From the NCBI GenBank assembly GCA_964587725.1, contig CAZPLO010000030.1:1-14025 (forward strand): a stretch of 14,025 nt of DNA. Direction: 5' to 3'. The position numbers were made by a program, and so were the translations under genes. Below, piece by piece: positions 252 to 13,815 of the stretch (positions are counted from its first letter, which is position 1; each line of letters starts with the position of its first letter). The stretch is from an uncultured archaeon (GTDB lineage: Archaea; Altiarchaeota; Altiarchaeia; IMC4; SCGC-AAA252-I15). The notes under the pieces were generated by a model. It was not told the DNA's origin. It saw nothing but the letters and a program-made list of their open reading frames with translations, and searched no databases.

Positions 252-3029
252 TTATTTGCCGAGTTTTTTGTTTATGGCTTCGAGTTCTTTTTTGATTTTT
301 TCTGCGGCGTCTAGTTCGCGGGCGTCTTCCTCCGGTTCCTCGGGGGGTTCCTCTGGTTTCAGGGTTTCCGGGGGTTTCTCCTGTTCGGGGGTTTTTTCGG
401 GTTCTTCCGCGGGTTTTTCCTCTGTCTGCGGCTGCTGGGCGGGTTTTTCAGGCTCCTCTTTTTCAGTGGGTTTGGTGCCTCCTTTGGCTAGCAGGGCGTC
501 CAGGCGCTTGCTTATGTCCTCCCGGGATTCGGGTTCCGGTGTCTGTTCCTGTTTTGTCTCCGGTTTTTCGGCGGGCGGTTTGTTTTCAGCGGCTTTCTCA
601 GCTTCCTCCTCGGACTCTGGTATTTCGGAGAGTATTTGGAGTAGCGGAGACTCCTCTTCCTGCGGGTGCTCCGGCTTCGGAGGCTGCTCCTCCGGCTTCG
701 GAGGCTGCTGCTCTTCCTTCTCCTCCGGCTCCGGCTCCTTCTCCTGCGGCTCCGGCTCCTCCTCATCCTTGGCGGGTTCTTCGGGGATGAGGGGGGTGTA
801 GTCTACTTCCAGCTCCTTCTTTGGCTTTTTCTTTCGGAGTCTAGAGTATATGAGGTATGCTGCCGCAGCCAGTATCAGTAGTGTTGCTGCGGCTGCCAGC
901 GGCAGGATTAGGGTGGAGATGTCGACGCCTTGTGTTTTCCTCTGCTCCTCTTCGGCTTCGAGTATGAGGTTGCCGGATTTGATGGCGTTGTCGTGGTCTT
1001 CTATGGTTCTGTAGAGTTGCCGGGCTTTGGCTGCGTAGTCTTTCGCCAATTCATACTGTTGGGCTGTGAGGTGTTCGAATGCCGTGGCGTAGTTTTGCTG
1101 CGCTTCCACTCCGGTGTTGCAGGTGGAGAGGAGTGTGGCTGCGGTCGCCTGGTTTCCGGTCTCACCCAGGTCGGCGTAGATGCCGAGTGCCTGCGTGGCC
1201 TGGTCGACGCAGCCGTGGTAGTTGCCTTCCTCGTATGCGGTTAGGGCGCGGCCGTAGTGTGACGCTGCCGTAGCCAGCCTCGCCTGTATCTCCAGCTGCT
1301 CCTCAATGCGTGACAGCAGCGTGTCGGCCGCCGTTATCCTTCCGCTGTCTCCTACGATGGCGTATGACTGCTTCGCCGACGTCGCGTGTTCCTTCGCGGC
1401 CTCGTAGTTTTCCTGCTGGTACAGCCGCAGCGCCTGGTCGTAGTTGTTGTTGGCGCTCCTGTATTCGACGGTGTTGTTGACGAGTTTCTCCGCCTTGAGT
1501 ATGTTGGCTTCGTCTTCCAGGGTGCGGTACATCTCCAATGCCTTCAATGCGTATATGCTGCCTTCAACGTAGTCTTCGGCGCGGTTGTATTCCAGGGCCT
1601 GCTGGTAGTAGCCCTGCGCGGTTATCTGGTCTATTGCGTCGTCCACCAGGTCTGTTGCCGCTGCCGCGTTCACTGTGTCGTCCAGTGACAGGTAGATGAG
1701 GTGGGCTTCCGCAGCCAACTCCCTTGTTGCTGGGTAGTCGCCTGCCGTGTAGTTTCGGCGGGCCTGCACCATGAGCTTGTCCGCCTGCACGTATTTAACG
1801 GAGGTGTTGGAGAGTTCCCTGGCCTTCCTCACCTGTTCGGTGTCGTTGAGTTCGGCGTAGATTTCCTGCGCCGCGAGGGCGTGGTTCCTCGCCTTGGAGA
1901 AGTTCCCGGAGGCGTAGTGCGCCAGAGCCTTCTGGAGGTTGTCGTCTGCCGTGAGGTCGCGGAGGTAGTCTTGGTTTATCCTGTATGCCGTGATTTTCCT
2001 AGCACCCAACACTATCAGGTTGGTTTCCCCCTCCCAGAGGTCGGCGGCGGCGAGTTCGACTATTGGATACCCTACTTCGTGGGTCCACTTCAGCCGCCCC
2101 ATGTGGTCTAACGCGTATACCGTGTCCGCTGCCGCTACGAACACTTCGGGGGTGTTGTCTCCGTCCAGGTCGCCTGCGGTCACGGTCGGCTTCACCACCC
2201 GGACGGTGGTGTTCCACATCAGTTTGCCGGCGGCGCTCAACGCAGTGACCTGATCGTCTTCCGAGACTGCGAGAACCTCCTTGAGCCCGTCCCGGTTTAT
2301 GTCTTCACCGTACACTGCGACGACGGTGTCGCCGGGGTTGTACCTCCACATCCTGGCGCCGGTGTTCTTGAGGGCGTGGACGTAGTTGAAGGAGCCGGCA
2401 ATTATCTCCGGCACCCCGTCTCTGTTCAGGTCTGACGCATGTACTGCGCCGACTGTGCCTTCGGCGGTGTACTTCCACCGGAGGGTGCCGTCGCTGTTCA
2501 GCGCGTACACTGCGCCATCACGGGTTCCGGAGATTATTTCGAGGCTGTCGTCGCCGCCGAGGTCTGCTGCATCGAGTGAGACGGAGTAGCCGTAGTCGCG
2601 GTGCACCCACTTCAGCTGGTTGTTCTGCAGGTTCGGGTTCCTCTCCAGCACGAACACGGGGGACGCGTACGGCGACATACCGAAGGAGCAGGTCTTCGCC
2701 TCCACCACGGAGCCGACGACTATCTCCGTGTAGCCGTTGCCGTCTACGTCGTCGACCACGAGTGCGTTGGGGCTGTTCTGCGGCCATATCACTGATATCT
2801 TGTTCCGCCAGATGAGGACTCCGTTGTTGTCTAGGAGGTATGCGTAGCTGCCTTGTTCGCTGAACAAACCCACGGTTATTTCCAGGCTGCCGTTGCCTTC
2901 GACGTCGCGGACCTCCAGTAGGTCGCCTCCCAGGTCTATGCTCCACGCCTCCGCCAGGGGGTCGTATGTGACTGCATCAGCGAGTGCCGACGCCAAGATT
3001 AGTATGACAGCAGCTTCCAGGACTTTCAT
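252..3029 (-). CDS. Type I membrane surface protein (925 aa): signal peptide, FG-GAP/PQQ-like beta-propeller, TPR-like helical repeats, one TM helix, acidic Pro-rich cytoplasmic tail
   Basis: Start re-called at ATG 3029 (MKVLEAAVILILASALADA, signal-peptide-like). Seven DxDxDG-like motifs (DVEGNG, DVDGNG, DLGGDD, DLNRDG, DINRDG, DLDGDN, DLWEGE), several followed by G-x-L-x-W; six helical repeats of about 55-60 aa; TM LILPLAAAATLLILAAAAYLIY followed by RLRKKKPKK; E/P/K-rich tail. Confidence 0.88.
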   Translation of the reverse strand: MKVLEAAVILILASALADAVTYDPLAEAWSIDLGGDLLEVRDVEGNGSLEITVGLFSEQGSYAYLLDNNGVLIWRNKISVIWPQNSPNALVVDDVDGNGYTEIVVGSVVEAKTCSFGMSPYASPVFVLERNPNLQNNQLKWVHRDYGYSVSLDAADLGGDDSLEIISGTRDGAVYALNSDGTLRWKYTAEGTVGAVHASDLNRDGVPEIIAGSFNYVHALKNTGARMWRYNPGDTVVAVYGEDINRDGLKEVLAVSEDDQVTALSAAGKLMWNTTVRVVKPTVTAGDLDGDNTPEVFVAAADTVYALDHMGRLKWTHEVGYPIVELAAADLWEGETNLIVLGARKITAYRINQDYLRDLTADDNLQKALAHYASGNFSKARNHALAAQEIYAELNDTEQVRKARELSNTSVKYVQADKLMVQARRNYTAGDYPATRELAAEAHLIYLSLDDTVNAAAATDLVDDAIDQITAQGYYQQALEYNRAEDYVEGSIYALKALEMYRTLEDEANILKAEKLVNNTVEYRSANNNYDQALRLYQQENYEAAKEHATSAKQSYAIVGDSGRITAADTLLSRIEEQLEIQARLATAASHYGRALTAYEEGNYHGCVDQATQALGIYADLGETGNQATAATLLSTCNTGVEAQQNYATAFEHLTAQQYELAKDYAAKARQLYRTIEDHDNAIKSGNLILEAEEEQRKTQGVDISTLILPLAAAATLLILAAAAYLIYSRLRKKKPKKELEVDYTPLIPEEPAKDEEEPEPQEKEPEPEEKEEQQPPKPEEQPPKPEHPQEEESPLLQILSEIPESEEEAEKAAENKPPAEKPETKQEQTPEPESREDISKRLDALLAKGGTKPTEKEEPEKPAQQPQTEEKPAEEPEKTPEQEKPPETLKPEEPPEEPEEDARELDAAEKIKKELEAINKKLGK
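669..709. repeat. 21-bp-period tandem repeat encoding QPPKPE twice in the low-complexity tail
   Basis: CTCCGGCTTCGGAGGCTGCT at 669-688 and 690-709. Confidence 0.8.
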
Positions 3030-3051
3030 TGTTAGATAGTGGCATACGGCC

Positions 3052-3061
3052 CTTATATATT
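3052..3061. promoter_or_regulatory. Putative shared bidirectional TATA box
   Basis: CTTATATATT lies in the middle of the 51-bp gap between divergent ATGs at 3029 (-) and 3081 (+), 20-30 nt from each; no SD motif before either start. Confidence 0.55.
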
Positions 3062-3080
3062 CCTCCTCAGAGTATGTATT

Positions 3081-3770
3081 ATGCGTCGTGGGGGAGCTGT
3101 TCAGGAGGGGGAGACCCTGGTTGTTCTGCCGGCGTACAACGAGGGGGGGGTGCTCTCTGAGACGCTGGAGAAGCTGCGAGAGAGCGTGAAAGCGGATCTG
3201 CTGGTGGTGGACGACGGCAGCTCGGACGATACGGCGGACATAGCGCGTGCCGCGGGCGCGAGGGTGGTCAGCCACGCCGTGAACCTGGGATTGGGGGCGG
3301 CGTTGTCCACCGGCCTGGAGGTCGCCCGCCGCGAAGGCTACGAGAGGATGGTTACGTTCGACGCCGACGGACAGCACAGCCCCGAAGACATAGGTAGGCT
3401 GCTGGAAGAACTCGGCGGCTGCGACGTCGTAATAGGCGTGCGGACGGTGCACGGCGAGCGGATGCCGCTGGTGAAGAAGATAGGGAACCACATACTGAAC
3501 ATTCTGACCGCGGTGGTGTTCCAGACATACTGCAGGGACAGCCAGAGCGGGCTGCGGGCGTTCAACCGGAAGGCGATCGATTCCCTGGAGTTGAAGGCCA
3601 ACAGGTATGAGGTGTCGTCTGAAATACTGTATGAGGCCGGGAGGAATGGTTTGACGGTGGGGGAGGTTCCGGTGGACGCCATATACACGGAGCATTCCAT
3701 GAGCAACGGCACCGGCGTGAAGGACGGTTTTAAGATACTGTGGCGTATGTTATTACACAGGGGCAGGTGA
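3081..3770 (+). CDS. GT2 family glycosyltransferase, DPM1-like (polyprenol-phosphate sugar synthase), 229 aa
   Basis: Motifs VVLPAYNE, VVDDGSSDDT, NLGLGAAL, FDADGQH, DSQSGLRAF typical of DPM1-like GT2; ATG at 3081 preferred over GTG 3039. Confidence 0.93.
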   Translation: MRRGGAVQEGETLVVLPAYNEGGVLSETLEKLRESVKADLLVVDDGSSDDTADIARAAGARVVSHAVNLGLGAALSTGLEVARREGYERMVTFDADGQHSPEDIGRLLEELGGCDVVIGVRTVHGERMPLVKKIGNHILNILTAVVFQTYCRDSQSGLRAFNRKAIDSLELKANRYEVSSEILYEAGRNGLTVGEVPVDAIYTEHSMSNGTGVKDGFKILWRMLLHRGR

Positions 3771-3772
3771 AG

Positions 3773-4099
3773 ATGATAGTCGAGGTTTTCGGGATACTGT
3801 TTTCGTTGTTCGCTTTGAGCAGGGCGGTGCTCCGGTTCAGGGAGGGCCGGCTCAGCTGGGGGATGCTCGCCGTCTGGAGCCTGGCGTGGCTGACGGTTAT
3901 AGCGTTCATACTGTCGCCCGCCAGCTTCGAGCGGGTGTCTAAGGCCATAGGCGTGCAGCGGCCCCTGGATTTGATGCTGATTGCGGGGGTTATTTTCTCG
4001 TACTACCTGGTGTTCCGCATCTACATTTACGTGGAGGAAATCCGGTCCGACATGGCGAAGGTGGTGCGTGAAGTGGCGTTGGAGAAGGATGGAAAATAA
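3773..4099 (+). CDS. DUF2304-like small membrane protein, 108 aa
   Basis: Three hydrophobic segments, W-x-x-x-W and GVQRPLDL motifs, C-terminal 'VREVAL' helix. Starts 2 nt after the GT2 stop (alternative GTG 3767 overlaps it); this family commonly pairs with DPM1-like GT2. Confidence 0.82.
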   Translation: MIVEVFGILFSLFALSRAVLRFREGRLSWGMLAVWSLAWLTVIAFILSPASFERVSKAIGVQRPLDLMLIAGVIFSYYLVFRIYIYVEEIRSDMAKVVREVALEKDGK

Positions 4100-4116: not shown

Positions 4117-4632
4117 TTAATTGGAGCAGCTTCCAGCCAGTTTCTCGACGCCCGTGAACGACTTGCCTTCTACGCCGTGTTCGCGGTTGCTGTACTGGAA
4201 CGTCACATCGAACGAGTACGAGCCCCCGGATGTGCAGTTGAACGGCGCCGTGGCCTCCCACTTGTAGTAGTCGCCGGGCAGCAGGGTCAGGCCAAGCGCG
4301 GTGGTGCTGTCTCCGCCGTCTATGGAAACCCAGTCGACGGTGACCTGGTATTCCTTGTTGTTCTGCAGCACCAGGGTGCTGTTCTGGCTTGCAGACGTCT
4401 GGAATATCTCCCAGTCCATAATACCTATGTCCGCGGACTTCCAGTAGATAGCACCCTTCTTCTTGTACGTTGTCGCTGTTCCAATCTTGATGAAACCCGA
4501 TAGAACACCGACAGCAACCACCGCGATAACAATCGCGATAGCAAGAAGAACCAGATACTCTACAGACGTCTGCCCCTTCCTGCCGGTTCTGAACGCTTTC
4601 AACGATTTCATGTTTTTCCCCGAGCCAAACAC
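4117..4632 (-). CDS. Class III signal peptide (type IV pilin-like) protein, paralog 2
   Basis: RKG|QTSVEYLVLLAIAIVIAVVAVGVL prepilin cleavage motif with Q+1/E+5; beta-rich body with two Cys. Start is GTG 4632 or ATG 4611. Confidence 0.9.
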   Translation of the reverse strand: MFGSGKNMKSLKAFRTGRKGQTSVEYLVLLAIAIVIAVVAVGVLSGFIKIGTATTYKKKGAIYWKSADIGIMDWEIFQTSASQNSTLVLQNNKEYQVTVDWVSIDGGDSTTALGLTLLPGDYYKWEATAPFNCTSGGSYSFDVTFQYSNREHGVEGKSFTGVEKLAGSCSN

Positions 4633-4656
4633 CTGTAAACAATTGGGATATAGTAT

Positions 4657-4664
4657 TATATAAA
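4657..4664 (-). promoter_or_regulatory. Putative TATA box of pilin paralog 2
   Basis: Minus strand TTTATATA about 25 nt upstream of GTG 4632. Confidence 0.6.
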
Positions 4665-4689
4665 GCAGGGAGCTTCAGCTGGGAAAGAT

Positions 4690-4733
4690 AAAATAAAAAG
4701 AAAAGAGGATCCTGCCCTCGCGGACAGGGACTC
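4690..4733 (-). terminator. Hairpin plus T-tract terminator after pilin paralog 1
   Basis: Minus strand CCTGTCC-GCGA-GGGCAGG (GNRA loop, one G-U pair) followed by CTCTTTTCTTTTTATTTT, starting about 20 nt after the stop at 4750. Confidence 0.75.
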
Positions 4734-4749
4734 AAAGCCAGTCAACCCC

Positions 4750-5256
4750 TTATGCGGAGGTTGAGCAGGTTCCTGCTAGCTTCTCGACGCCCGTGAACGA
4801 CTTGTCGAGCACGGAGTGCTCCAGGTTGTCGTACTGGAAGGTTATCTCATACGAGTATGAGCCTCCCGCCGTACAGCTGAAGTTGCCGTTGTCGGTCTCC
4901 CACTTGTACGTGTCACCCGGTAGCAATGTCTGGGCTATGGCTATCGTGGATGTTCCGCCGTCGGTCGATATCCAGTCGATCCGAATCTGGTATTCCTTGT
5001 TGTTCTGGAATACCAAGGTACTGTTGGTCAAGGAGACATCGTATACCTCCCAGTCCATAATACCTATGTCCGCGGACTTCCAGTAGATAGCACCCTTCTT
5101 CTTGTACGTTGTCGCTGTTCCAATCTTGATGAAACCCGATAGAACACCGACAGCAACCACCGCGATAACAATCGCGATAGCAAGAAGAACCAGATACTCT
5201 ACAGACGTCTGTCCCTTCCTGTCGCTTTTTACTGCCTTTAAAGGTTTCATGTTCAT
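4750..5256 (-). CDS. Class III signal peptide (type IV pilin-like) protein, paralog 1
   Basis: Same RKG|QTSVEYLVLLAI motif; SD GGGGGTGA upstream (better spaced to ATG 5250 than 5256); two Cys at the same positions as paralog 2. Confidence 0.92.
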   Translation of the reverse strand: MNMKPLKAVKSDRKGQTSVEYLVLLAIAIVIAVVAVGVLSGFIKIGTATTYKKKGAIYWKSADIGIMDWEVYDVSLTNSTLVFQNNKEYQIRIDWISTDGGTSTIAIAQTLLPGDTYKWETDNGNFSCTAGGSYSYEITFQYDNLEHSVLDKSFTGVEKLAGTCSTSA

Positions 5257-5281
5257 CTCACCCCCCTATTTTTATTTGATG

Positions 5282-5451: not shown

Positions 5452-6153
5452 TCAGCCCGGCTGCCAGAAGAGTTTCTCCTCAGGCGAGATCTTTATGCCG
5501 TTGTCGAATATGAAGGGCACTATCTTCCGGGAGTGGTCTGAGCCCCGCATCTTCAGCACCTCTATGGCGTTCTGCCGGACGTTCCTTATCTGGATATTGT
5601 AGAGTATGATGACGCCGTCGACCACGTATTCCTCGAAGCCTATGCCCAACGTGGAGGCGGGCATCCTCTCCGCCTCCAACGTCATGAGGCTGGTGCAGTT
5701 GTTTTTCCGCAGCCACTCGCAGAATTTGAGCAGGCTCATCTTCCGGTCGAACAGGTCTTTGACGATGATGTTGAACGTGCTCAGCGGATCTATCACGAAC
5801 CGCTTAGCGTCCATCGACTTTAGGGTGTCCCGTATTTCGCCGTAGTCTTCGCGGATGACCTGCATGACGTCCGACGGGTCCAGGCGTAGGACGGTCAACT
5901 TCTCCTGTTTTTCAAGCTTGTTCAAATCCCACCCGTACTGGCCCATGTACTGTTTCAGCATGCCGGGGGTCTCGTTGAAGCTTACGTAGACTCCATTTTC
6001 ATTATACTCAGTGGCGCCGTTGTACAGGTATTGTAGGCAGAGGGTGGTTTTCCCGCTGCCTGCGCCGCCCGCCACAATGGTGGAGGAGCCCTCCGGCAGC
6101 CCGCCCGAAAGCATCTCGTCCAGCCCCGGTATCCTGGTCTCAACCTTTTTCAT
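5452..6153 (-). CDS. Single-domain KaiC/RAD55-family RecA-like ATPase, 233 aa
   Basis: TRIPGLDEMLSGGLP start, Walker A GGAGSGKT, YVSFNE, Walker B RFVIDPL, VDGVIIL, EVLKMRG arginine-finger motif. Overlaps the upstream gene by 14 nt. Confidence 0.93.
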   Translation of the reverse strand: MKKVETRIPGLDEMLSGGLPEGSSTIVAGGAGSGKTTLCLQYLYNGATEYNENGVYVSFNETPGMLKQYMGQYGWDLNKLEKQEKLTVLRLDPSDVMQVIREDYGEIRDTLKSMDAKRFVIDPLSTFNIIVKDLFDRKMSLLKFCEWLRKNNCTSLMTLEAERMPASTLGIGFEEYVVDGVIILYNIQIRNVRQNAIEVLKMRGSDHSRKIVPFIFDNGIKISPEEKLFWQPG

Positions 6154-8530
6154 CGTTCGCGTATATGCCGGTTATGATATTTATTTCAGACTCTATTATA
6201 GTCTGCTGTTTCCTGGCCTCGTTCAACTGCTTCTCCATCACGTGCTTCTCATCCAACACCTTGATTATGTCCGCGTTCTTGGACTCGTATTCCTGGGACA
6301 TCCTGTTCTTCCGCTCCTCCAGCGTGGAAAGCTTCTCCTCCACCGCCACCCTCTCCTTAGAGGCTTTGTCCAGTTTCTTCCGGGCCTTCTTCAAATCCGC
6401 CTTGACGGCCCTGATCTGCTTTCTCTGGTTCTTACGCTGGTCTTTGAGCTCCTTCAGCCGCCGTTTGGCCTCTGTCACCCGCGTAGACTGCGCGGCAACC
6501 TCCGACTCAGCCAAGGGTATCTGCTCCTCCTCCTCTTTGAGTTTGCGGGCGAGGCTCTCCTTCTCCAGCCGTAGTTCGTTGTTCTCCTTCTCCAGCGCAT
6601 GGGCTTTCGTCTGCATCCCCACGTACTCCTCCTCCAGTGAGCTGACCTTCTCCCTGCATTCGCCGACGTAGTTTTCAGCAGCCTCCAGATCGGATTCAAC
6701 GGATTCCTGCACTCTGACGGCCTCGTCCAAGTCCGCCTTCAACCGGCTTTTCTCGTCGAGGAACCGGTCCATCTCCTGTTTTATGGGGTACAGGAACCGC
6801 ATCACCGTCAACCCGCCGGCCCACGACTTAATCTTCCGCTCCCGGTTCGCCTTCAACTCCTCGTCCTTGTGTATGAGCTCGGCTCTAGCGTCCTGTATCT
6901 GCTTCCGCAGCTCATCCATTTCGGACACGGTCTTCTTCACCTGCCGGCCGACCTTCGCAGACCTGGTTTTAATCCGCTTCCTCTCCGCCGCCGAATTCTT
7001 CAGCTTGGCTTCCAGGCGCTGCTGCTCCAGCTCCGCCCGGTCCAGCTGCTTCTTGAGCATTAGCCGCCCCTCCTCCGAGTAGCCTGCGGACCCCAGCTTG
7101 TCTTTCACGTGCTTCAGCTGCTTCTCCTTCACCTTCACTTCCTTGGCGGCGTCCTCCAGGGAATCCGACAGTTCCTTCACCTTCCCCTTGAGGCCGTCTT
7201 CCTTCTTCCCCAGGGACTTTATCTTTCCCTCTGCGGCGGTGATTTTCTCGGTCGCATCCCGTATGGACTCCCGCAGCACCTTCGGCAGCTCTATAATCAG
7301 CTTCTCCTCCTCGCTGCCGGATATCTCCCGCAGCTCCGACTCCAGGCTCTCCTTCTCCTTCATCACCTCGTCGAGTTTGGTCTTAAGCTGCTCCTCCTTC
7401 TCGACGACAGCCTGCATCTCCTTCCTGGCGTTGGATATCTCTGAACGGGTCTCCTCCAATGTCTTCTTCCCGGCCTTCAGCTGCTCCTCCAGACTGGATT
7501 CTTTGTCCTTCGACTCCGCCAGCGCCCTGGCTGCGTCGTCGAGCTCCGCGTACACGCTGAACTGGAGCTGAATCTCCCTGACACGGGATTTCGCGGCATC
7601 CAGGCCTTCCTTGATTTTCTTCTCCTTCTCTTCTTCTCCGCGGAGGCTGGACTCCAGCGACTTCCCCTCGGCCTCCAGCTCCGACAGCTCCCGCTCCTTC
7701 GCATCCAGCGTCTTCTCAGCCGCCTGTATGTCGTCCTTCAGCTTCTCCTTCTCCCTGCCTATCTCGTCGACGCGGTGGTAGAGGTTGTAGACTTCCTCTA
7801 TTGCCGCGCGTTCCTGTGACACGCGGTCGTATTCACCCGCTATTCTGCGCTGCTCCTCCAACGCCGACTCCAACTCCGCTCTTGCTGAAGAGACCTCCTT
7901 GTCCAACACCGTGCGCTTCCGTTCAAAGTCCGCTATTTTGTTGAGGTTCTCCCGGATGCCGTTGTCCGCCTTGAGGATTTTATCCGGCATCCTCCGCACC
8001 TTCCGTTTGGCGGACGCCAGGGACTTTTTCGCCGACTTCAGCTCCTTCTGAAGGTCCTTGTATTCTCCGTCGGCCTGCTTTATCTCTGACTCCAAATCCT
8101 GCAAGCCGATGTCGGCCTCCTCCTTCTGTCTAGCAAATGCGTCGACGGTGTCGCGGAGCTCTTCCTCAGCCTTCAACTTCGGGTTCAGCTGCTCCCGTAA
8201 CCCATCCTCCTCCTCTTCAACGGCGTCCAACGCCTCCCTGACCTTCGCCCGTTCGACCTCCACCGCCCGTATCCGCCTCTGAACTTCGAGGATGCCCTTG
8301 GACAGGTCTGTTATGGACGCTTTGACGTCGGCGAGCTCCTTCCGCAGGTCTGGGAGGTTGCCGGACTCCATCAGCGACTTCGACGGCTTCCGGATGAGCT
8401 TCGACAGATGCTGTATCCGCTTCTCCTCAGACCCCACATTAGAGGGAACCTTGTTCTTTCCCGTGCCGTGGGAGCCCTTGATTATGTCGGTCAACCGCTT
8501 AACCTTGTCGTCTCTGCCGGAGTCTTCCAT
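6140..8530 (-). CDS. Long coiled-coil protein, 796 aa, no ATPase head or TM segment
   Basis: Nearly continuous E/K/L/R-rich heptad pattern; SD GAGGGGTGA before ATG 8530; starts 1 nt after the upstream stop and overlaps the downstream gene. Confidence 0.88.
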   Translation of the reverse strand: MEDSGRDDKVKRLTDIIKGSHGTGKNKVPSNVGSEEKRIQHLSKLIRKPSKSLMESGNLPDLRKELADVKASITDLSKGILEVQRRIRAVEVERAKVREALDAVEEEEDGLREQLNPKLKAEEELRDTVDAFARQKEEADIGLQDLESEIKQADGEYKDLQKELKSAKKSLASAKRKVRRMPDKILKADNGIRENLNKIADFERKRTVLDKEVSSARAELESALEEQRRIAGEYDRVSQERAAIEEVYNLYHRVDEIGREKEKLKDDIQAAEKTLDAKERELSELEAEGKSLESSLRGEEEKEKKIKEGLDAAKSRVREIQLQFSVYAELDDAARALAESKDKESSLEEQLKAGKKTLEETRSEISNARKEMQAVVEKEEQLKTKLDEVMKEKESLESELREISGSEEEKLIIELPKVLRESIRDATEKITAAEGKIKSLGKKEDGLKGKVKELSDSLEDAAKEVKVKEKQLKHVKDKLGSAGYSEEGRLMLKKQLDRAELEQQRLEAKLKNSAAERKRIKTRSAKVGRQVKKTVSEMDELRKQIQDARAELIHKDEELKANRERKIKSWAGGLTVMRFLYPIKQEMDRFLDEKSRLKADLDEAVRVQESVESDLEAAENYVGECREKVSSLEEEYVGMQTKAHALEKENNELRLEKESLARKLKEEEEQIPLAESEVAAQSTRVTEAKRRLKELKDQRKNQRKQIRAVKADLKKARKKLDKASKERVAVEEKLSTLEERKNRMSQEYESKNADIIKVLDEKHVMEKQLNEARKQQTIIESEINIITGIYANDEKG

Positions 8531-8531
8531 G

Positions 8532-10265
8532 TCACCCCTCCCCTTCCGTCAGCTCCTGGAGCCGCTTCTCCATGGCCTTCTTCTTATCCAACACTTCCTT
8601 CAGCTTGCTCTCCGTCTCCTCGCGGGCCTGGGTTATGAACCCGAGCTCGTCCTCTACCTTCGCCTTCCGGTCGCGGACGTCCTCCAACTCCTCCTTCTTG
8701 CTGGCGCCCTCCTCCACCATCGACTTCAGCTCGTCCTTCAGCAGGTTGATTTCGGTCGCCACCGCCTCCCGGCGGCTGTCGAGGGATTCCAGTTTCTCCT
8801 TCGACTCCGCCACCTGCTTCTCACGCTTCGCCAGCACGTCCTTAAGATAAGGTGTGAGGTCTATGTAGAGTTCCCCGCCGCCCTCCACCAGAGACTGTAT
8901 CTTGTCCTCCAGGTTTTTCTTGCGGTCGAGTATCCTGTCTATGCGCTCCTTGATTTTGTCCTGGTCTTCGACCAGCTCACGATAGCGTTCCTCCTCCCCC
9001 CCACGGTCCTTCTCTATGTCCGCTAACGCGGACTGCTTGGCAGCCACCGCCCTTCGGACGCTGGTCTTCCGCTCCTCAATCTCCCGGACCTCAGACTTCG
9101 CCTGGTTCTCCTTCGTCAGCAAAAGATCCAGCCTCTTCCTGGACTCCCGGGATTGCTCCTCCTTCTCATGGACGACCTCGCGGAGGCGGAGCTGCTCGTT
9201 CAACAGATCCTTTATCTCCTCCCCCAGCTTATCCGGCAAATCGTTCATGTCCGCCACGATAATCTGCTTGTCGATGTGCTGCACCGTCGGACCCATGGAA
9301 CCGCCGCCAGCGCCGCCGGGACCGCCTTCCCCCCCCGCACCCCCTGCTGGGGGGGCTGCACCGCCCACTGAACGACCCCCTGAACCCTCGAATTTTATGT
9401 TCGACAACCCCTCCCGGAGGCCTTTCGCCAGACCTTTCTCGTCTATCTTCCCAGGCTCCATTTTGATGTTGGACAACCCCTCCTTCAGACCCTCCACCAA
9501 GCCCTCTTTGAAGTCTTCGAGGTAGCCGCCGGCGTCCATGTACTTCCTCGGGCCGGCGGGTCGCGACACGGTCACGCCCGGCTGCTGCTGCCACGCGAAC
9601 AGACTGCTTTCAATCCACTCCCCCGTCTGCCCCAACGGAAGCTTCAGCACGCTTATCTTACGCACCCCCTTGTCGAACCCGAACTCCAGCACCGAATCGC
9701 ACATCATCTTCAACGTCTCCTCGGTCTGGGGGTCGTGGAGGTCACGCTGCAGTATGAACGTGCCCGTGAACCCCGCCGACGTTATCCTGCTTATGTGCAC
9801 CTTCAGGAACTCCTCGCACGTCGACGGCCTATTGTAAAGCAGCAGCGTGGATACGGAGTCGAAAACCACCAAACCCTGGCCCTTCACCTCCGACAGCGCC
9901 CGCATAAGCATCCGGTTCAACTCGTTCAAGTTGACGGCGGATGTGCAGTTTATCACGTACGGGTCGTTCAACCCCTTGCCGGTGACCTGCTCCGAATACG
10001 CGTCTATGAACCGCAGGAGGTTATGGTCCTGGAAGCTGCGGTAGTCTACCTTGAAGTACTCCATCTTCTCCCGTATCGACAGCGGGCTCTCATCCAAACA
10101 AATCCATATGCAGGGGAGGCTGTTCTTCAGGAACTCCCGCGCCAGCGTCAGAGAGAAGGTGGTCTTCCCCGAAGCAACCGAACCGTATAGAAGGGTGGAA
10201 ACCCCCAAGGGAAACTCCTTCACTTCCCCGCCTATGTCTAACCGTACGATACGCACCAGATTCAC
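8532..10265 (-). CDS. KaiC/RAD55-like ATPase domain fused via a Gly-rich linker to a C-terminal coiled coil, 577 aa
   Basis: Walker A GSVASGKT, WICLDE, LRFIDAYS, Walker B VVFDSVSTL, CDSVLEF in the first ~225 aa; GGAGGEGGPGGAGGG linker; ~230 aa of heptads. Start GTG 10265 or GTG 10256 (SD GGGGGTGA fits the latter). Confidence 0.9.
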   Translation of the reverse strand: MNLVRIVRLDIGGEVKEFPLGVSTLLYGSVASGKTTFSLTLAREFLKNSLPCIWICLDESPLSIREKMEYFKVDYRSFQDHNLLRFIDAYSEQVTGKGLNDPYVINCTSAVNLNELNRMLMRALSEVKGQGLVVFDSVSTLLLYNRPSTCEEFLKVHISRITSAGFTGTFILQRDLHDPQTEETLKMMCDSVLEFGFDKGVRKISVLKLPLGQTGEWIESSLFAWQQQPGVTVSRPAGPRKYMDAGGYLEDFKEGLVEGLKEGLSNIKMEPGKIDEKGLAKGLREGLSNIKFEGSGGRSVGGAAPPAGGAGGEGGPGGAGGGSMGPTVQHIDKQIIVADMNDLPDKLGEEIKDLLNEQLRLREVVHEKEEQSRESRKRLDLLLTKENQAKSEVREIEERKTSVRRAVAAKQSALADIEKDRGGEEERYRELVEDQDKIKERIDRILDRKKNLEDKIQSLVEGGGELYIDLTPYLKDVLAKREKQVAESKEKLESLDSRREAVATEINLLKDELKSMVEEGASKKEELEDVRDRKAKVEDELGFITQAREETESKLKEVLDKKKAMEKRLQELTEGEG

Positions 10266-10440
10266 CCCCTAAATACCCCGCCGCACCCCCCTCAGTGTAC
10301 TGCCGCGGGGTTATGTATTGGACAATGGTTTAAATATACACCGGAGGTTACTATGCCCGCCCGCTGGAGGGAACCAGCCCCTGAACGTATTTATATTAGG
10401 GTAAACGTATTATTTACAAAACTTTTTAAGGTGATGTGAG

Positions 10441-10656
10441 ATGGCAACTACACCAACGGACGAAGTCAAGGTCTTTGAGATTGAATGGGAGGGTTTCTTC
10501 GGGAACATGCATTTGATGAACATCGGGATACCGACGTTCGAGGACCTCTGCGAAATAGCGATTATTATGAGCAGGCCCGTCCTGAAGGAGAAAGGCAGGA
10601 ACATATACCACGTCGTCGACGCCTCAAGCGTCTACACGTACAAGAAGAGGAAATAG
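10441..10656 (+). CDS. Small hypothetical protein, 71 aa
   Basis: ATG preceded by SD AAGGTGA, TATA-like TTTATAT at 10390-10396, fills an otherwise empty gap, followed by a hairpin/T-tract. Confidence 0.72.
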   Translation: MATTPTDEVKVFEIEWEGFFGNMHLMNIGIPTFEDLCEIAIIMSRPVLKEKGRNIYHVVDASSVYTYKKRK

Positions 10657-10662
10657 GTTTCT

Positions 10663-10710
10663 AAAACGGGGTGGGTTGCAGACACCCCTTTCTTTAAATT
10701 TATCTTTATT
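10663..10710. terminator. Putative bidirectional terminator between convergent genes
   Basis: GGGGTG(10668-10673)/CACCCC(10683-10688) stem with TTTCTTT after it on + and TTTT after it on -. Confidence 0.55.
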
Positions 10711-11292
10711 CTATGGGAACAGGAACACCCGCTGGTCTATCAGCGCGTTCGGCGTCGTGAACCCGATGCGCCGTATGCTGCCCTGCGACGGAATAATCTG
10801 TATAACAAGCTTCTCGTCGGAGCCGATGGGTGTGGCGAGTGAAATGTTTATGACGGCGCTGTCTCCGAGGTTGACGTATCCGTCCAGCGGCGAACCCGAC
10901 CGCTGCAGGTAGTAGACGTCGTAGGTTCCGCTGCCGGCGGCGGTGGAGTAGCGGAGGGTCTGGAAGGATGTGCGGCCGTCGATTGTTATGACGGTGGTGT
11001 TGAGGTTGATGGGGTCCGAGCCGGGCTTCAATTTCACCAGCATCTCCAGCTGTTCCACTTGGCCGTCGTCGCTGGCGTCCGAGCCGACGATGGAGTAGAC
11101 GTTCAAGCCGCTGGCTATCTCAGCCTCCGTCCCCTTCATAGCCGTCACCGAACGCTGCTCCAGGCCGCCTCCGGAGCCTATCAAGACGGCGGCCGCGACT
11201 GCGGAGACTACGATAACCGCTATGAAGATTATCAGCATCCCTATCCCCATCAGGCCCTTCCGTCCTCTGCTCCGGTTTTTCATATGCAACAC
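10711..11292 (-). CDS. arlB: Archaellin (archaeal flagellin)
   Basis: RKG|LMGIGMLIIFIAVIVVSAVAAAVLI N-terminal helix, LEQRS, VKLKPGSDPINL, conserved in archaellins. Start GTG 11292 or ATG 11283. Confidence 0.93.
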   Translation of the reverse strand: MLHMKNRSRGRKGLMGIGMLIIFIAVIVVSAVAAAVLIGSGGGLEQRSVTAMKGTEAEIASGLNVYSIVGSDASDDGQVEQLEMLVKLKPGSDPINLNTTVITIDGRTSFQTLRYSTAAGSGTYDVYYLQRSGSPLDGYVNLGDSAVINISLATPIGSDEKLVIQIIPSQGSIRRIGFTTPNALIDQRVFLFP

Positions 11293-11299
11293 GCTTTTT

Positions 11300-11902
11300 T
11301 TACGTCGGCCACAGCGAGACGCTCTCCTGCGTCATGCTGTCCGGCGTGTAAAACTCTATCTGGGTGTACGTCCCCACACGCGGGATCATCTTAATCCGCA
11401 CCAGCTGGTTCTCGCTTATCTCCGGACTCAGCTGGAATATTATCTTCGCCACGTCACCGCGGTTCAGGTAGCCGTTCTCGTGGTTGGTTCCGTTCTGTAT
11501 GTAGTATACCACGTAAGCGGTCGTGGTCGCCGCCGTCGAGTCGGCCCCGATGGTCGTGTTGTATGTCAGACTGTACGACGCCGTCTCCGTGTCCACGGTT
11601 ATTATGGTGTTGTTCAGGTTGATTCCCTGGGAACCCGACTGAAGCCGCACCATCACCTTGAAGTCGCCCACCTTATGCGGTGTCCCGTCGCTGGCGCTCG
11701 CATCCGAGGCCACGACCGTCATGGCCTCTATCCCCGAGGCGATGCTCTCCTCCGTCTGCGAGCCCGTGATAAGGGCTTTCTGCTGGAGGCTGCCGCCTGT
11801 GGTGATAAGGACCGACGCCGCAACCGCTGCGATGAGGATTATCGCAATGAATATTATCAACGCTCCTATCCCCATCATACCTTTCCTTTCCTTAGCCCTC
11901 AT
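11300..11902 (-). CDS. arlB: Archaellin (archaeal flagellin), 200 aa
   Basis: RKG|MMGIGALIIFIAIILIAAVAASVLITTGGSLQQKA; SD GAGGTG 5 nt before ATG 11902. Confidence 0.95.
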   Translation of the reverse strand: MRAKERKGMMGIGALIIFIAIILIAAVAASVLITTGGSLQQKALITGSQTEESIASGIEAMTVVASDASASDGTPHKVGDFKVMVRLQSGSQGINLNNTIITVDTETASYSLTYNTTIGADSTAATTTAYVVYYIQNGTNHENGYLNRGDVAKIIFQLSPEISENQLVRIKMIPRVGTYTQIEFYTPDSMTQESVSLWPT

Positions 11903-11943
11903 TTGCACACCTCTGTGATATATTGATTTACTTTACCTCTTTT

Positions 11944-12624
11944 TTAAGTTGTCGGCCACAGCAAAACCCGCTGTTCCACCATGGAATCCGGAGTCATGAA
12001 CTCCAGCTGCGTCATAGCCCCCGTACGGGGTATGAGTGTGATGCGCGACCGTATGTTTTCGCCCAGCTGCCCGTTTATGTTGAATTTGAGCTCCGCCACG
12101 TCCCCCCGGTTCATGTAGCCGTCCTCGTGTATGGGCGCCTCCTTCACGTACGACACCACGAACGTGGACGTCCCCGACGCCGTGGCGGACTGCGGTACGG
12201 TGCCGTTGTACAGGAAGTTCTGGCTCGCCAGCGGCGTGTCCAACGTCACCACCGTGTTGTTCAAACTCAGCGGGTCGCTGCCTGCCTGAAGCCGCACCAT
12301 CACGTTCAAGCTGGTGACTGCGTGCGGAGTCCCCGATGAGCTGGCGTCGGACCCGGTTATCTTCACCGTCTCCACGCCGGAGCCCACACCCTCCCGCGCC
12401 TCGTTGCCGGTTATCAACGCCTTCTGCTGGAGGTTCCCGCCCGTGGATATCAAAACGAAAGCCGCTATGGCAGAGATTAGAACAATGGCTATGAATATTA
12501 TCAACGCCCCTATACCCATCAACCCCCGGTTCACCTTGTCGTGGCGGGACAGAACCAACAGTATCAGCAACACTATAGCGCCGGCACTGACTGTGCCTCT
12601 GCCGGGTTTCTTCAGCTGGGCCAT
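11944..12624 (-). CDS. arlB: Archaellin with an extended hydrophobic leader, 226 aa
   Basis: NRG|LMGIGALIIFIAIVLISAIAAFVLISTGGNLQQKA; SD GGAGGT before ATG 12624 places an extra hydrophobic stretch ahead of the cleavage site. Confidence 0.92.
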   Translation of the reverse strand: MAQLKKPGRGTVSAGAIVLLILLVLSRHDKVNRGLMGIGALIIFIAIVLISAIAAFVLISTGGNLQQKALITGNEAREGVGSGVETVKITGSDASSSGTPHAVTSLNVMVRLQAGSDPLSLNNTVVTLDTPLASQNFLYNGTVPQSATASGTSTFVVSYVKEAPIHEDGYMNRGDVAELKFNINGQLGENIRSRITLIPRTGAMTQLEFMTPDSMVEQRVLLWPTT

Positions 12625-12720
12625 CCGCAACCTCCACGTACCCAGGCAACCACCTCAAAAACAGCCAACCAGCCAGACCCCCCAAGCCCACGCATGAGCT
12701 GTTACATAATGTATTTGAGG

Positions 12721-12744: not shown

Positions 12745-13815
12745 TCACGGTATTAGGGGGCTGCTGCGGCTGTCGTGGCGGTCTATTTTCTTCTGAATCT
12801 CCAACCCGACAGTGTCCACCACCTCCCTCGTAACATTGTACCGCTCCTGCAGGTGCTTCAGGAACCCCTGTATGTCGTCGTTGGGGTTCTCTATCGACGA
12901 CGTTATCGCATATGCTATGTAGGCTGCGAGCTCCTCCCCCCATTTGTCGCCGTAGTATTCCTTCACGAAGTGGTCTTTAACGCCGCCTATGTGCTTCACC
13001 ACCGCGTCGAAACGCGCCCCCAATTCCCTGGACGCGAATGCGTCGTATTTTTTGTCGGGCGCGTTGCGGTGCTTCACCGGCGTGAAAATCGGTATCGTAG
13101 CGTCCTCCAATATGGCAATCTTCATGGTGTCCCAGTGCTTCTCCACCGCCCCCGTCGCGTACAGCAGCATCATCACGTCCTTCACGTACACGTCGAGGAA
13201 GAACCGTTTGCCGATGTAGTCTATGCCGTCGTGTGTTATGTTCAATTCGATGTTGTTGAGCATCTCCAGCAGCAGCTCGTGCATGCCCTGGTATTTCTTG
13301 TTGGTTACGTCGGTGGTCCTCGACACGGATATGAACAGCAGCTTGAAGAAGAAGCGGGATATCTCCCGGCCCATGAAAATCAGCGGGAACAGCGTGTCCA
13401 GGAACCGCATCCGCTCCCTGCTGGCGAGCTTCTCGTCCAGGCTGCCCATCCAGTTATCGTCTCTGCTTAACTCCTTGAATGTGGCCATCGCCGCCTCCGC
13501 CTCGTAGTCGGTGAAGGAGTAGCGGTTGACGATGGAGTGGATTACGTTGACGTTAGCCTTGAACGGATTCCGCGGCTTCCCGTCAACATAGTATCGTTTG
13601 CTCCTGGACAGGAAACCCATCTTCACGAACTTGTTCAGCTTCTTCCGGTACGCCTCCTGGCTCTGCTTCTTCAACAGGATGTCCTCCTTACGGAGCTGAT
13701 ACGACCAGGTCTCTTCCTTCAGCAGCCGGAGGAAGAAGCGTGTGAGGGCGTCCTGGGTGTCGGCGTCCATGTGTTTGACCTTGAGAAAGAGTTCCCTGGC
13801 TGTGTAATCCGTCAA
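12745..13815 (-). CDS. Hypothetical protein, 356 aa, with a winged-HTH-like N-terminal region (putative regulator)
   Basis: TTG start after GGGGGGA SD-like motif. SQEAYRKKLNKFVKMGFLSRSKRYYVDGKPRNPFKAN resembles the recognition helix plus wing (Y-x-x-x-L-x-x-h-x-x-x-G-h-h...G-[RK]-P) of archaeal wHTH proteins. Product call is by eye only. Confidence 0.75.
   Translation of the reverse strand: MTDYTARELFLKVKHMDADTQDALTRFFLRLLKEETWSYQLRKEDILLKKQSQEAYRKKLNKFVKMGFLSRSKRYYVDGKPRNPFKANVNVIHSIVNRYSFTDYEAEAAMATFKELSRDDNWMGSLDEKLASRERMRFLDTLFPLIFMGREISRFFFKLLFISVSRTTDVTNKKYQGMHELLLEMLNNIELNITHDGIDYIGKRFFLDVYVKDVMMLLYATGAVEKHWDTMKIAILEDATIPIFTPVKHRNAPDKKYDAFASRELGARFDAVVKHIGGVKDHFVKEYYGDKWGEELAAYIAYAITSSIENPNDDIQGFLKHLQERYNVTREVVDTVGLEIQKKIDRHDSRSSPLIP

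Follow-up and report, generated by a model that had tools for sequence, protein, structure and literature searches.

Two tandem genes on the minus strand, gene a (4117–4611) and gene b (4750–5250), share a patch of 165 identical nucleotides (nt) inside coding sequences that are otherwise strongly diverged. They lie in the window analysed here, which is the entire 14,025-bp contig (C30) of a 48-contig, 1.56-Mb, 92%-complete genome (G000), and judged from their sequences they encode EppA/Epd-style archaeal type IV pilin-like subunits of an Altiarchaeota-type archaeon. We favour, with a probability of about 0.85, the reading that these are old tandem paralogues in which a recent, short, non-crossover interlocus gene conversion copied about 165–175 nt of gene b into gene a. 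Genes a and b would then be ancient tandem duplicates of a pilin-like gene, and one recent non-crossover event, which we infer to have proceeded by homologous recombination, would have overwritten the part of gene a that encodes mature residues 1–55 (the helix, a linker helix and the first strand) with the matching stretch of gene b. The tract would sit where the paralogues were already most alike, and hence where the best recombination substrate was to be had, since it is in the N-terminal region that purifying selection is strongest. At the protein level the conversion would have been almost or entirely silent.

A bounded patch of identity between diverged genes

Direct comparison within the window confirms that 4408–4572 (gene a) and 5047–5211 (gene b) agree at 165 of 165 bases, as originally predicted. 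The maximal exact run is exactly 165 nt long at an offset of 639, with mismatches at 4407/5046 and 4573/5212; beyond the latter, single mismatch another 9 nt on the leader side are identical, and identity outside the patch boundaries extends for less than 10 nt. Read on the minus strand, the patch opens with CAG, the Gln+1 codon, which follows immediately on the ...RKG end of the leader, and spans 55 codons, that is, mature residues 1–55 of both genes. On either side of it the two genes are far apart. Their leader (signal peptide) codons (4573–4611 in gene a and 5212–5250 in gene b) differ at 11 of 39 nt, and their heads, the beta-sandwich parts (4120–4407 and 4753–5046), at 91 of 285 aligned nt (31% in heads). 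By the Nei-Gojobori method the proportion of synonymous sites that differ (pS) is 0.70 in the leader, 0.00 over the 40.7 synonymous sites of the patch and 0.62 in the head, and the corresponding nonsynonymous proportion (pN) is 0.00 in the patch and 0.23 in the head; the synonymous divergence (dS) of the heads is about 1.3. The head pN/pS ratio of about 0.37 (0.229/0.622) indicates that the heads are under purifying selection overall. Third codon positions tell the same story, differing at 6 of 13 in the leader, 0 of 55 in the patch and 44 of 95 in the head. When the 50 differing third positions were shuffled over the 163 codons, the observed run of 57 identical third positions was reached in none of 200,000 permutations, the longest run obtained being 35. 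Divergence is thus not uniformly low along the gene, and a plain recent duplication is ruled out by the leader pS of 0.70 and the head pS of 0.62.

Relatives of these genes provide a control for the identity. The family set comprises 30 genes: five related genomes contributed 11 of them and nine metagenome contigs the other 19. In 413 cross-group pairs, between 11 and 69 of the 165 nt differ (median 43); in the 22 same-group pairs the count is 0 for G000, 3 for L036, 8 and 9 for two whole-gene recent duplicates, and 26–53 for the other 18, despite near-identical peptides in these last. L035_1 and L035_2, for example, differ at 34 of 165 nt and by one amino-acid change, and the tandem paralogues in G004 and G012 differ at 45–53 of 165 nt with pS of 0.71–0.75; the longest exact runs in old pairs are 9–27 nt, compared with 165 in genes a and b. 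Since 18 of the 22 same-group pairs carry 26–53 differences, peptide constraint does not by itself yield DNA identity, and the 0/165 of G000 is an outlier that purifying selection or codon bias does not explain. The two genes of L036 (L036_1 at 765–1223 and L036_2 from 1406), which have unrelated leaders and differ at 3 of 165 nt with exact runs of 95 and 59 nt, are a probable second, independent case of conversion; their contig stops 12 nt into the second head, possibly because assembly broke at the repeat. The pairs L040_3/L040_4 and G005_a/b are young whole-gene duplicates or variants. G005_a and G005_b, which lie on separate contigs (C201 and C385; L004 and L022), differ at 8 of 165 N-terminal and 31 of 279 head positions. 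The pilin genes of G005 are 89–95% identical and each lies about 40 nt from a contig end; they may be a young duplicate at which the assembly broke, or may come from two strains that ended up in one bin, and this pair was left out of the conversion count. None of the remaining arrays has a homogenised N-terminus, so that N-terminal tracts are seen in 2 of 11 groups, and array size among the relatives ranges from one to at least four genes. Judged from these sequences, the history of the family is one of birth-and-death evolution, by tandem duplication and loss, with occasional conversion.

The two shorter islands of identity that the original prediction listed within the heads, of 21 and 24 nt, both exist, although one of them requires a different explanation. 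The 21-nt island (4345–4365 = 4987–5007) was considered as a second conversion tract and rejected, because the same 21-mer, which encodes QNNKEYQ, is found in 9 of the 30 family members and in several genomes; it is best described as codon bias on a conserved motif. The 24-nt island (4142–4165 = 4781–4804, minus strand; KSFTGVEK) is shared only by this pair among the 30 members; it could be a second micro-tract or chance, and alone it is not significant.

An AlphaFold2 model built from a 34-sequence alignment (predicted local distance difference test score, pLDDT, 84) has helices at residues 17–44 and 46–59 and a nine-strand beta-sandwich over residues 62–161. The patch had been described as a constant polymerisation helix. 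Helix 17–44 does lie within it, but its 55 residues also take in the second helix, 46–59, and the first beta-strand.

Probable donor, recipient and age of the event

The head of gene a shares a clade with four second-in-array genes, L034_2, L037_2, L039_2 and L041_1 (support 93/93 from DNA and 92/86 from protein), and the gene order, b-type and then a-type, is the same in those related arrays. The clade and the common order together suggest that the duplication that gave rise to genes a and b predates those lineages. Fourteen sites are diagnostic between a-type and b-type N-termini; the shared patch agrees with the b-type at 12 of them and with the a-type at the other 2, which fall in a single codon that is also present in the closest b-type relative. 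The patch differs by 14–26 nt from seven b-type orthologues and by 31–34 nt from four a-type ones. These comparisons point to the copy in gene b (5047–5211) as the probable donor and to that in gene a (4408–4572) as the recipient, and hence as the conversion tract. Gene a is moreover a-type on both sides of the b-type patch: before it come a non-b upstream region and a diverged leader, and after it an a-type head, which argues for a non-crossover conversion of b into a rather than unequal crossing-over.

The patch shows no difference in 165 nt (40.7 synonymous sites) whereas the dS of the heads is about 1.3, so that, set against the duplication, the event is very young. The tract measures 165 nt, and would measure about 175 nt if the mismatch at 4573/5212 arose later. 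Its start at Gln+1, within about 3–10 nt, is what is expected of a tract limited to the best-conserved stretch, and need not reflect function. The original prediction of a recent gene conversion thus stands, on the strength of the leader-patch-head mosaic, of a tract that is bounded on both sides and of the 26–53 differences seen in related arrays.

All of this agrees with what is known of interlocus gene conversion between tandem paralogues: genes that are otherwise saturated, and probably old, contain a delimited tract without any divergence, transfer is non-reciprocal with a donor that can be deduced, and the tract falls in the most conserved and most similar part. Nothing essential differs, and the tract here is a short one (165–175 nt). 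Judged from related arrays, the partners were probably about 80–85% identical in the patch stretch beforehand, so that recombination can act between partners probably only 80–85% identical. The genes would then offer a clean, datable case of short-tract conversion in an uncultured Altiarchaeota-type lineage, with donor, recipient and both ends defined within about 10 nt. In the literature searched, from which supplements and subscription journals were excluded, we found no description of gene conversion among archaeal pilins.

A broader, speculative idea, which we hold to be doubtful, is that, in Altiarchaeota and DPANN-type archaea, recombination recurs within the first 55 codons of the mature pilin, which would act as a hinge through which arrays change in size and heads are re-assorted. 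If it were true, repeated conversion would keep the N-terminus homogeneous while arrays expand, contract and re-assort heads within and between strains, giving population-level variation of the pilus surface without dedicated machinery, and G000 (0/165) and L036 (3/165) would be fresh events of an ongoing process.

Alternatives to a single conversion event

In Neisseria one expression locus receives variable segments from many silent cassettes, which have neither a promoter nor the 5' part, with the help of a G-quadruplex (G4) element; in the inversion systems that switch pilin tips (Moraxella Piv type, shufflons), inverted repeats flank the alternative segments and a recombinase gene lies nearby. 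The original prediction had envisaged a cassette-style shuffling of variable heads onto the constant part, reminiscent of pilE/pilS and perhaps driven by virus pressure. Programmed variation of this kind, in which the 165 nt would act as a hinge for swapping or deleting heads, either in pilE/pilS fashion or by a 639-bp pop-out, seems to us improbable. It would be consistent with the presence of direct 165-nt repeats 639 nt apart, a substrate for deletion or amplification, with the range of array sizes among relatives and with the homogenised N-terminus of the second array, L036. What genes a and b have in common with pilE/pilS is gene conversion among pilin paralogues that share a conserved N-terminal region; they differ in that both are complete genes, each full length with its own start and upstream signals, that it is the conserved part that was converted while the heads remain 31% different, and that there are no extra cassettes. 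The 165-mer was sought elsewhere in the genome, and only the two known copies, and no third, were found in the 48 contigs; the only further pilin paralogue found in the genome is full length and 39% identical. No G4 motif of the form (G3+N1-7)x4 is present on either strand of the window. Unlike those of the inversion systems the repeats are direct, and there are no inverted repeats around the genes; no recombinase family was detected among the 15 window open reading frames (ORFs) scanned against Pfam (one of these, the 356-amino-acid ORF at 12745–13815, matched no family). Across the family, homogenisation is absent from 18 of the 22 same-group pairs, the other four being G000, L036 and the two whole-gene recent duplicates.

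Read data from public runs bear on the pop-out version as well. They were available at the contig level, as Logan k=31 contigs of four runs from one study (X1–X4). The inter-repeat segment shows no deficit against its flanks (depth 50.4 vs 44.9 and 47.5 in X1, and 87.6 vs 72.5 and 77.6 in X2), although the comparison is crude, with one depth per contig, and a deletion between the 165-nt repeats (the 639-bp pop-out) makes no new 31-mer and so is invisible in k=31 contigs. Taken together, these findings point to ordinary gene conversion and not to a pilin-switching system, and the case reveals no new mechanism of variation. As for virus pressure, nothing in the analysis bears on viruses, and that suggestion is left unsupported.

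The same contigs speak to whether the identity is real DNA. An artefact, in which the two copies truly differ and a metagenome assembler collapsed or homogenised them, has to be considered for a 48-contig, 92%-complete assembly of metagenome type, the more so as a 165-nt repeat exceeds the usual short-read k-mers, contig data lose rare variants, and there is strain variation nearby. At window position 5030, 17 nt outside the patch, the window has A, and the X1 and X2 contigs have G, equivalent to Leu74Ser in gene b's head; the X4 contigs over 4954–5076 are short and fragmented, a hint of further variants in that head. The independent k=31 assemblies nevertheless resolve the repeat as a single, unbranched node. 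In X1, X2 and X4 it is one 165-nt contig without internal variant, at a depth of 90.2 in X1 (flanks 44.9/50.4/47.5), 211 in X2 (72.5/87.6/77.6) and 22.2 in X4 (6.2/11.2/9.6), or about 1.9–2.7 times that of the flanks, and at each of the four junctions its overlap with the flank contig is exactly 30 nt: one Logan contig ends at 4437, a 534-nt one covers 4543–5076 and another starts at 5182, each reaching 30 nt into the repeat. In X3 a single contig runs from the head of gene a through the patch to 4572. A copy diverged at 26–53 of 165 positions would form a path of its own, without the shared junction k-mers, and a stretch with about 20% divergence is more than an assembler can swap when the identity outside it is shorter than 10 nt; at most a few single-nucleotide polymorphisms could have been popped. 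Assembly collapse is thus unlikely, and we rate the artefact a little lower still than programmed variation. On the assembly homogenisation that would refute the original prediction, the contig-level evidence thus leans towards true identity. Exact 165-nt repeats do break or loop short-read assemblies, and call for caution in annotation and binning.

Unequal crossing-over, which would leave a chimeric gene with identity extending outward from the crossover point, is slightly less credible again. Arrays of this family do expand and contract, and L040_3/L040_4 and G005_a/b are young whole-gene duplicates; but the identity here is bounded on both sides within one gene, by the leader diverged at 11 of 39 nt and the non-b sequence upstream of it on one side and by the a-type head on the other, while a single crossover should have left the partner's sequence on one side and neither flank of gene a is b-derived. 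That selection at the nucleotide level, for an embedded RNA element, an antisense gene or a binding site, keeps the 165 nt identical can be dismissed, for although the identity covers every synonymous site and antisense ORFs of 66 and 78 amino acids overlap both copies, the 28 other family members vary freely at synonymous sites (11–69 of 165 nt in cross-group pairs; pS 0.53–0.97) and the antisense ORFs are a by-product of the repeat.

Several points weigh against conversion of b into a between ancient pilin paralogues, or against parts of that reading. The approximately unbiased (AU) test does not reject a sister relationship between the two G000 heads (p 0.21, difference in log-likelihood 16.05), and the a-type clade is not 'starred'; the argument for the age of the paralogues consequently rests mainly on the saturated pS. 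The tree of the N-terminal 55 codons is largely unresolved, so the donor call rests on 14 sites, and the a-type and b-type groups that define those sites were themselves drawn from the head clade and gene order. The four runs belong to a single study, two of them possibly being the source of the assembly, and contigs can lose minor variants, so that one or two true differences between the copies are possible; these would alter "very recent" to "recent" and leave the mechanism the same. On the protein side, a Foldseek search with the pilin model gave nothing at E <= 0.001; its top matches were weak, to the archaeal pili 8fk7, 6nav, 6w8x and 6w8u (E 1e-3 to 1.6e-2, TM-score 0.3–0.45), with other weak matches to the Aap filament, archaellins and unrelated immunoglobulin-like domains, and a profile search of PDB sequences reached a pilin at E 0.3.

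The pilins and their surroundings

Both genes match the Pfam family PF04021 (Class_IIIsignal) at 29.3 bits, over a cut-off of 23.7. A class III signal is a short charged leader with a [KR]-G cleavage site before a hydrophobic stretch, and both leaders, MKPLKAVKSDRKG in gene b and MKSLKAFRTGRKG in gene a, end in RKG and are followed by the mature Q+1. The mature N-terminus is QTSVEY... in both, with Gln+1 and Glu+5; Q14 and E18 do not vary among the 34 aligned family members, and cysteines C126 and C162 and an NN motif are likewise invariant in that alignment. In the excerpts of PMC4371748 that we drew on, Gln+1 and Glu+5 form the signature that marks substrates of EppA, the large prepilin peptidase of euryarchaea. 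The closer relatives of the family are in Candidatus Altiarchaeota/Altiarchaeales, and more distant ones in Woese-, Micr-, Iain- and Undinarchaeota and Nanobdellota. NCBIfam has no family for either pilin, and the arrays thus document, in an Altiarchaeota-type lineage, a tandemly expanding EppA-style pilin family that is unnamed in that database and has no clearly matching solved structure.

The genome also encodes candidates for the processing and assembly of these proteins. A 299-amino-acid protein with Peptidase_A24 and Arc_PepC domains is found at C1:90242–91138, and there are six T2SSE matches in the genome. A pilus locus on contig C6 (L083, G000:C6:13500–27000) contains a ParA/MinD-like ATPase, a 730-amino-acid T2SSE ATPase and two T2SSF proteins, together with several class III-signal proteins, a PA14-like protein and a 153-amino-acid pilin that is 39% identical to those of genes a and b. 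By its content this locus is a Tad/Epd-like operon and the likely assembly machinery for this pilin family, and it may assemble the products of genes a and b into a pilus.

Two archaeal pilin systems invite comparison. The Epd pili of Methanococcus maripaludis (EpdA–E, EppA and EpdL/J/K), as described in the sections of PMC4371748 that we used, resemble the present case in the KG|Q cleavage site with Gln+1 and Glu+5 and in the occurrence of several pilin paralogues in one genome; the genome here likewise encodes a large A24 peptidase and carries one T2SSE and two T2SSF genes at a single locus. Genes a and b differ in having no detectable sequence relation to the Epd pilins beyond the class III signal peptide, and their EppA-type processing and their filament are only predicted. 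Closest as a biological parallel, by analogy, is the set of six PilA pilins of Haloferax volcanii, which according to the consulted parts of PMC4371748 and PMC7002104 have an almost fully conserved H-domain. There too, as far as those parts go, several type IV pilin paralogues combine the same N-terminal hydrophobic module with different C-terminal parts, and no pilin gene is co-located with assembly genes. The PilA proteins differ, on the same partial account, in belonging to another pilin family, which is processed by PibD and has a Pilin_N/DUF1628 H-domain and not Q+1; their genes are dispersed whereas a and b are tandem, and their identity is reported at the protein level over about 30 amino acids, with no mention in those parts of DNA identity or gene conversion, while that between a and b covers 55 residues and every base.

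Gene b, the upstream copy, encodes 166 amino acids from the ATG at 5250, and gene a, the downstream copy, 164 from the ATG at 4611. An in-frame ATG at 5256 would give gene b 168 amino acids; we chose 5250 because 5256 is too near the Shine-Dalgarno-like motif GGGGGGTGAG (5257–5266, minus strand) and because orthologues begin MKPLKA... at the equivalent ATG. This motif is common to all eight first-in-array (b-type) genes examined and is missing upstream of gene a. Just 3' of the gene b stop, by pattern match, a terminator-like hairpin (4728–4711) is followed by a T-rich run (the whole at 4690–4728, minus strand), and about 45–50 nt upstream of the gene a ATG a TATA-box-like TTTATATAA can be read (4656–4664, minus strand), a putative promoter of gene a's own. 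With these signals after gene b and before gene a the two look like separate transcription units, and they are probably expressed independently.

Upstream of the pilins the minus strand carries three archaellin genes (10711–11292, 11300–11908 and 11944–12630; PF01917), a 577-amino-acid protein with a KaiC-like N-terminal domain and a long coiled coil (8532–10265), a 796-amino-acid coiled-coil protein (6140–8530) and a 233-amino-acid KaiC-like ATPase (5452–6153) whose match to ArlH/FlaH is weak (52.5 bits vs a cut-off of 215). The region 5452–12630 is an archaellum-related block of unusual make-up, and neither ArlI nor ArlJ is encoded in the window. The archaellin paralogues (10711–12630) share a 107-nt N-terminal repeat that is only 67–70% identical, and thus, unlike the pilins, show no conversion among the three. 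Adjoining the archaellin genes, the 356-amino-acid ORF (12745–13815, minus strand) has no Pfam or NCBIfam match.

On the other side of the pilins, a large secreted or membrane protein (252–3023, minus strand) has FG-GAP/beta-propeller repeats, TPR-like helical repeats, a transmembrane segment and a Pro/Glu/Lys-rich tail. Divergent to it on the plus strand are genes for a GT2 glycosyltransferase (3039–3770) and a DUF2304 membrane protein (3740–4099). The pilins carry conserved N-x-S/T sequons such as NST and NCT, and the GT2 and DUF2304 genes are possibly linked to glycosylation of the neighbouring pilins.

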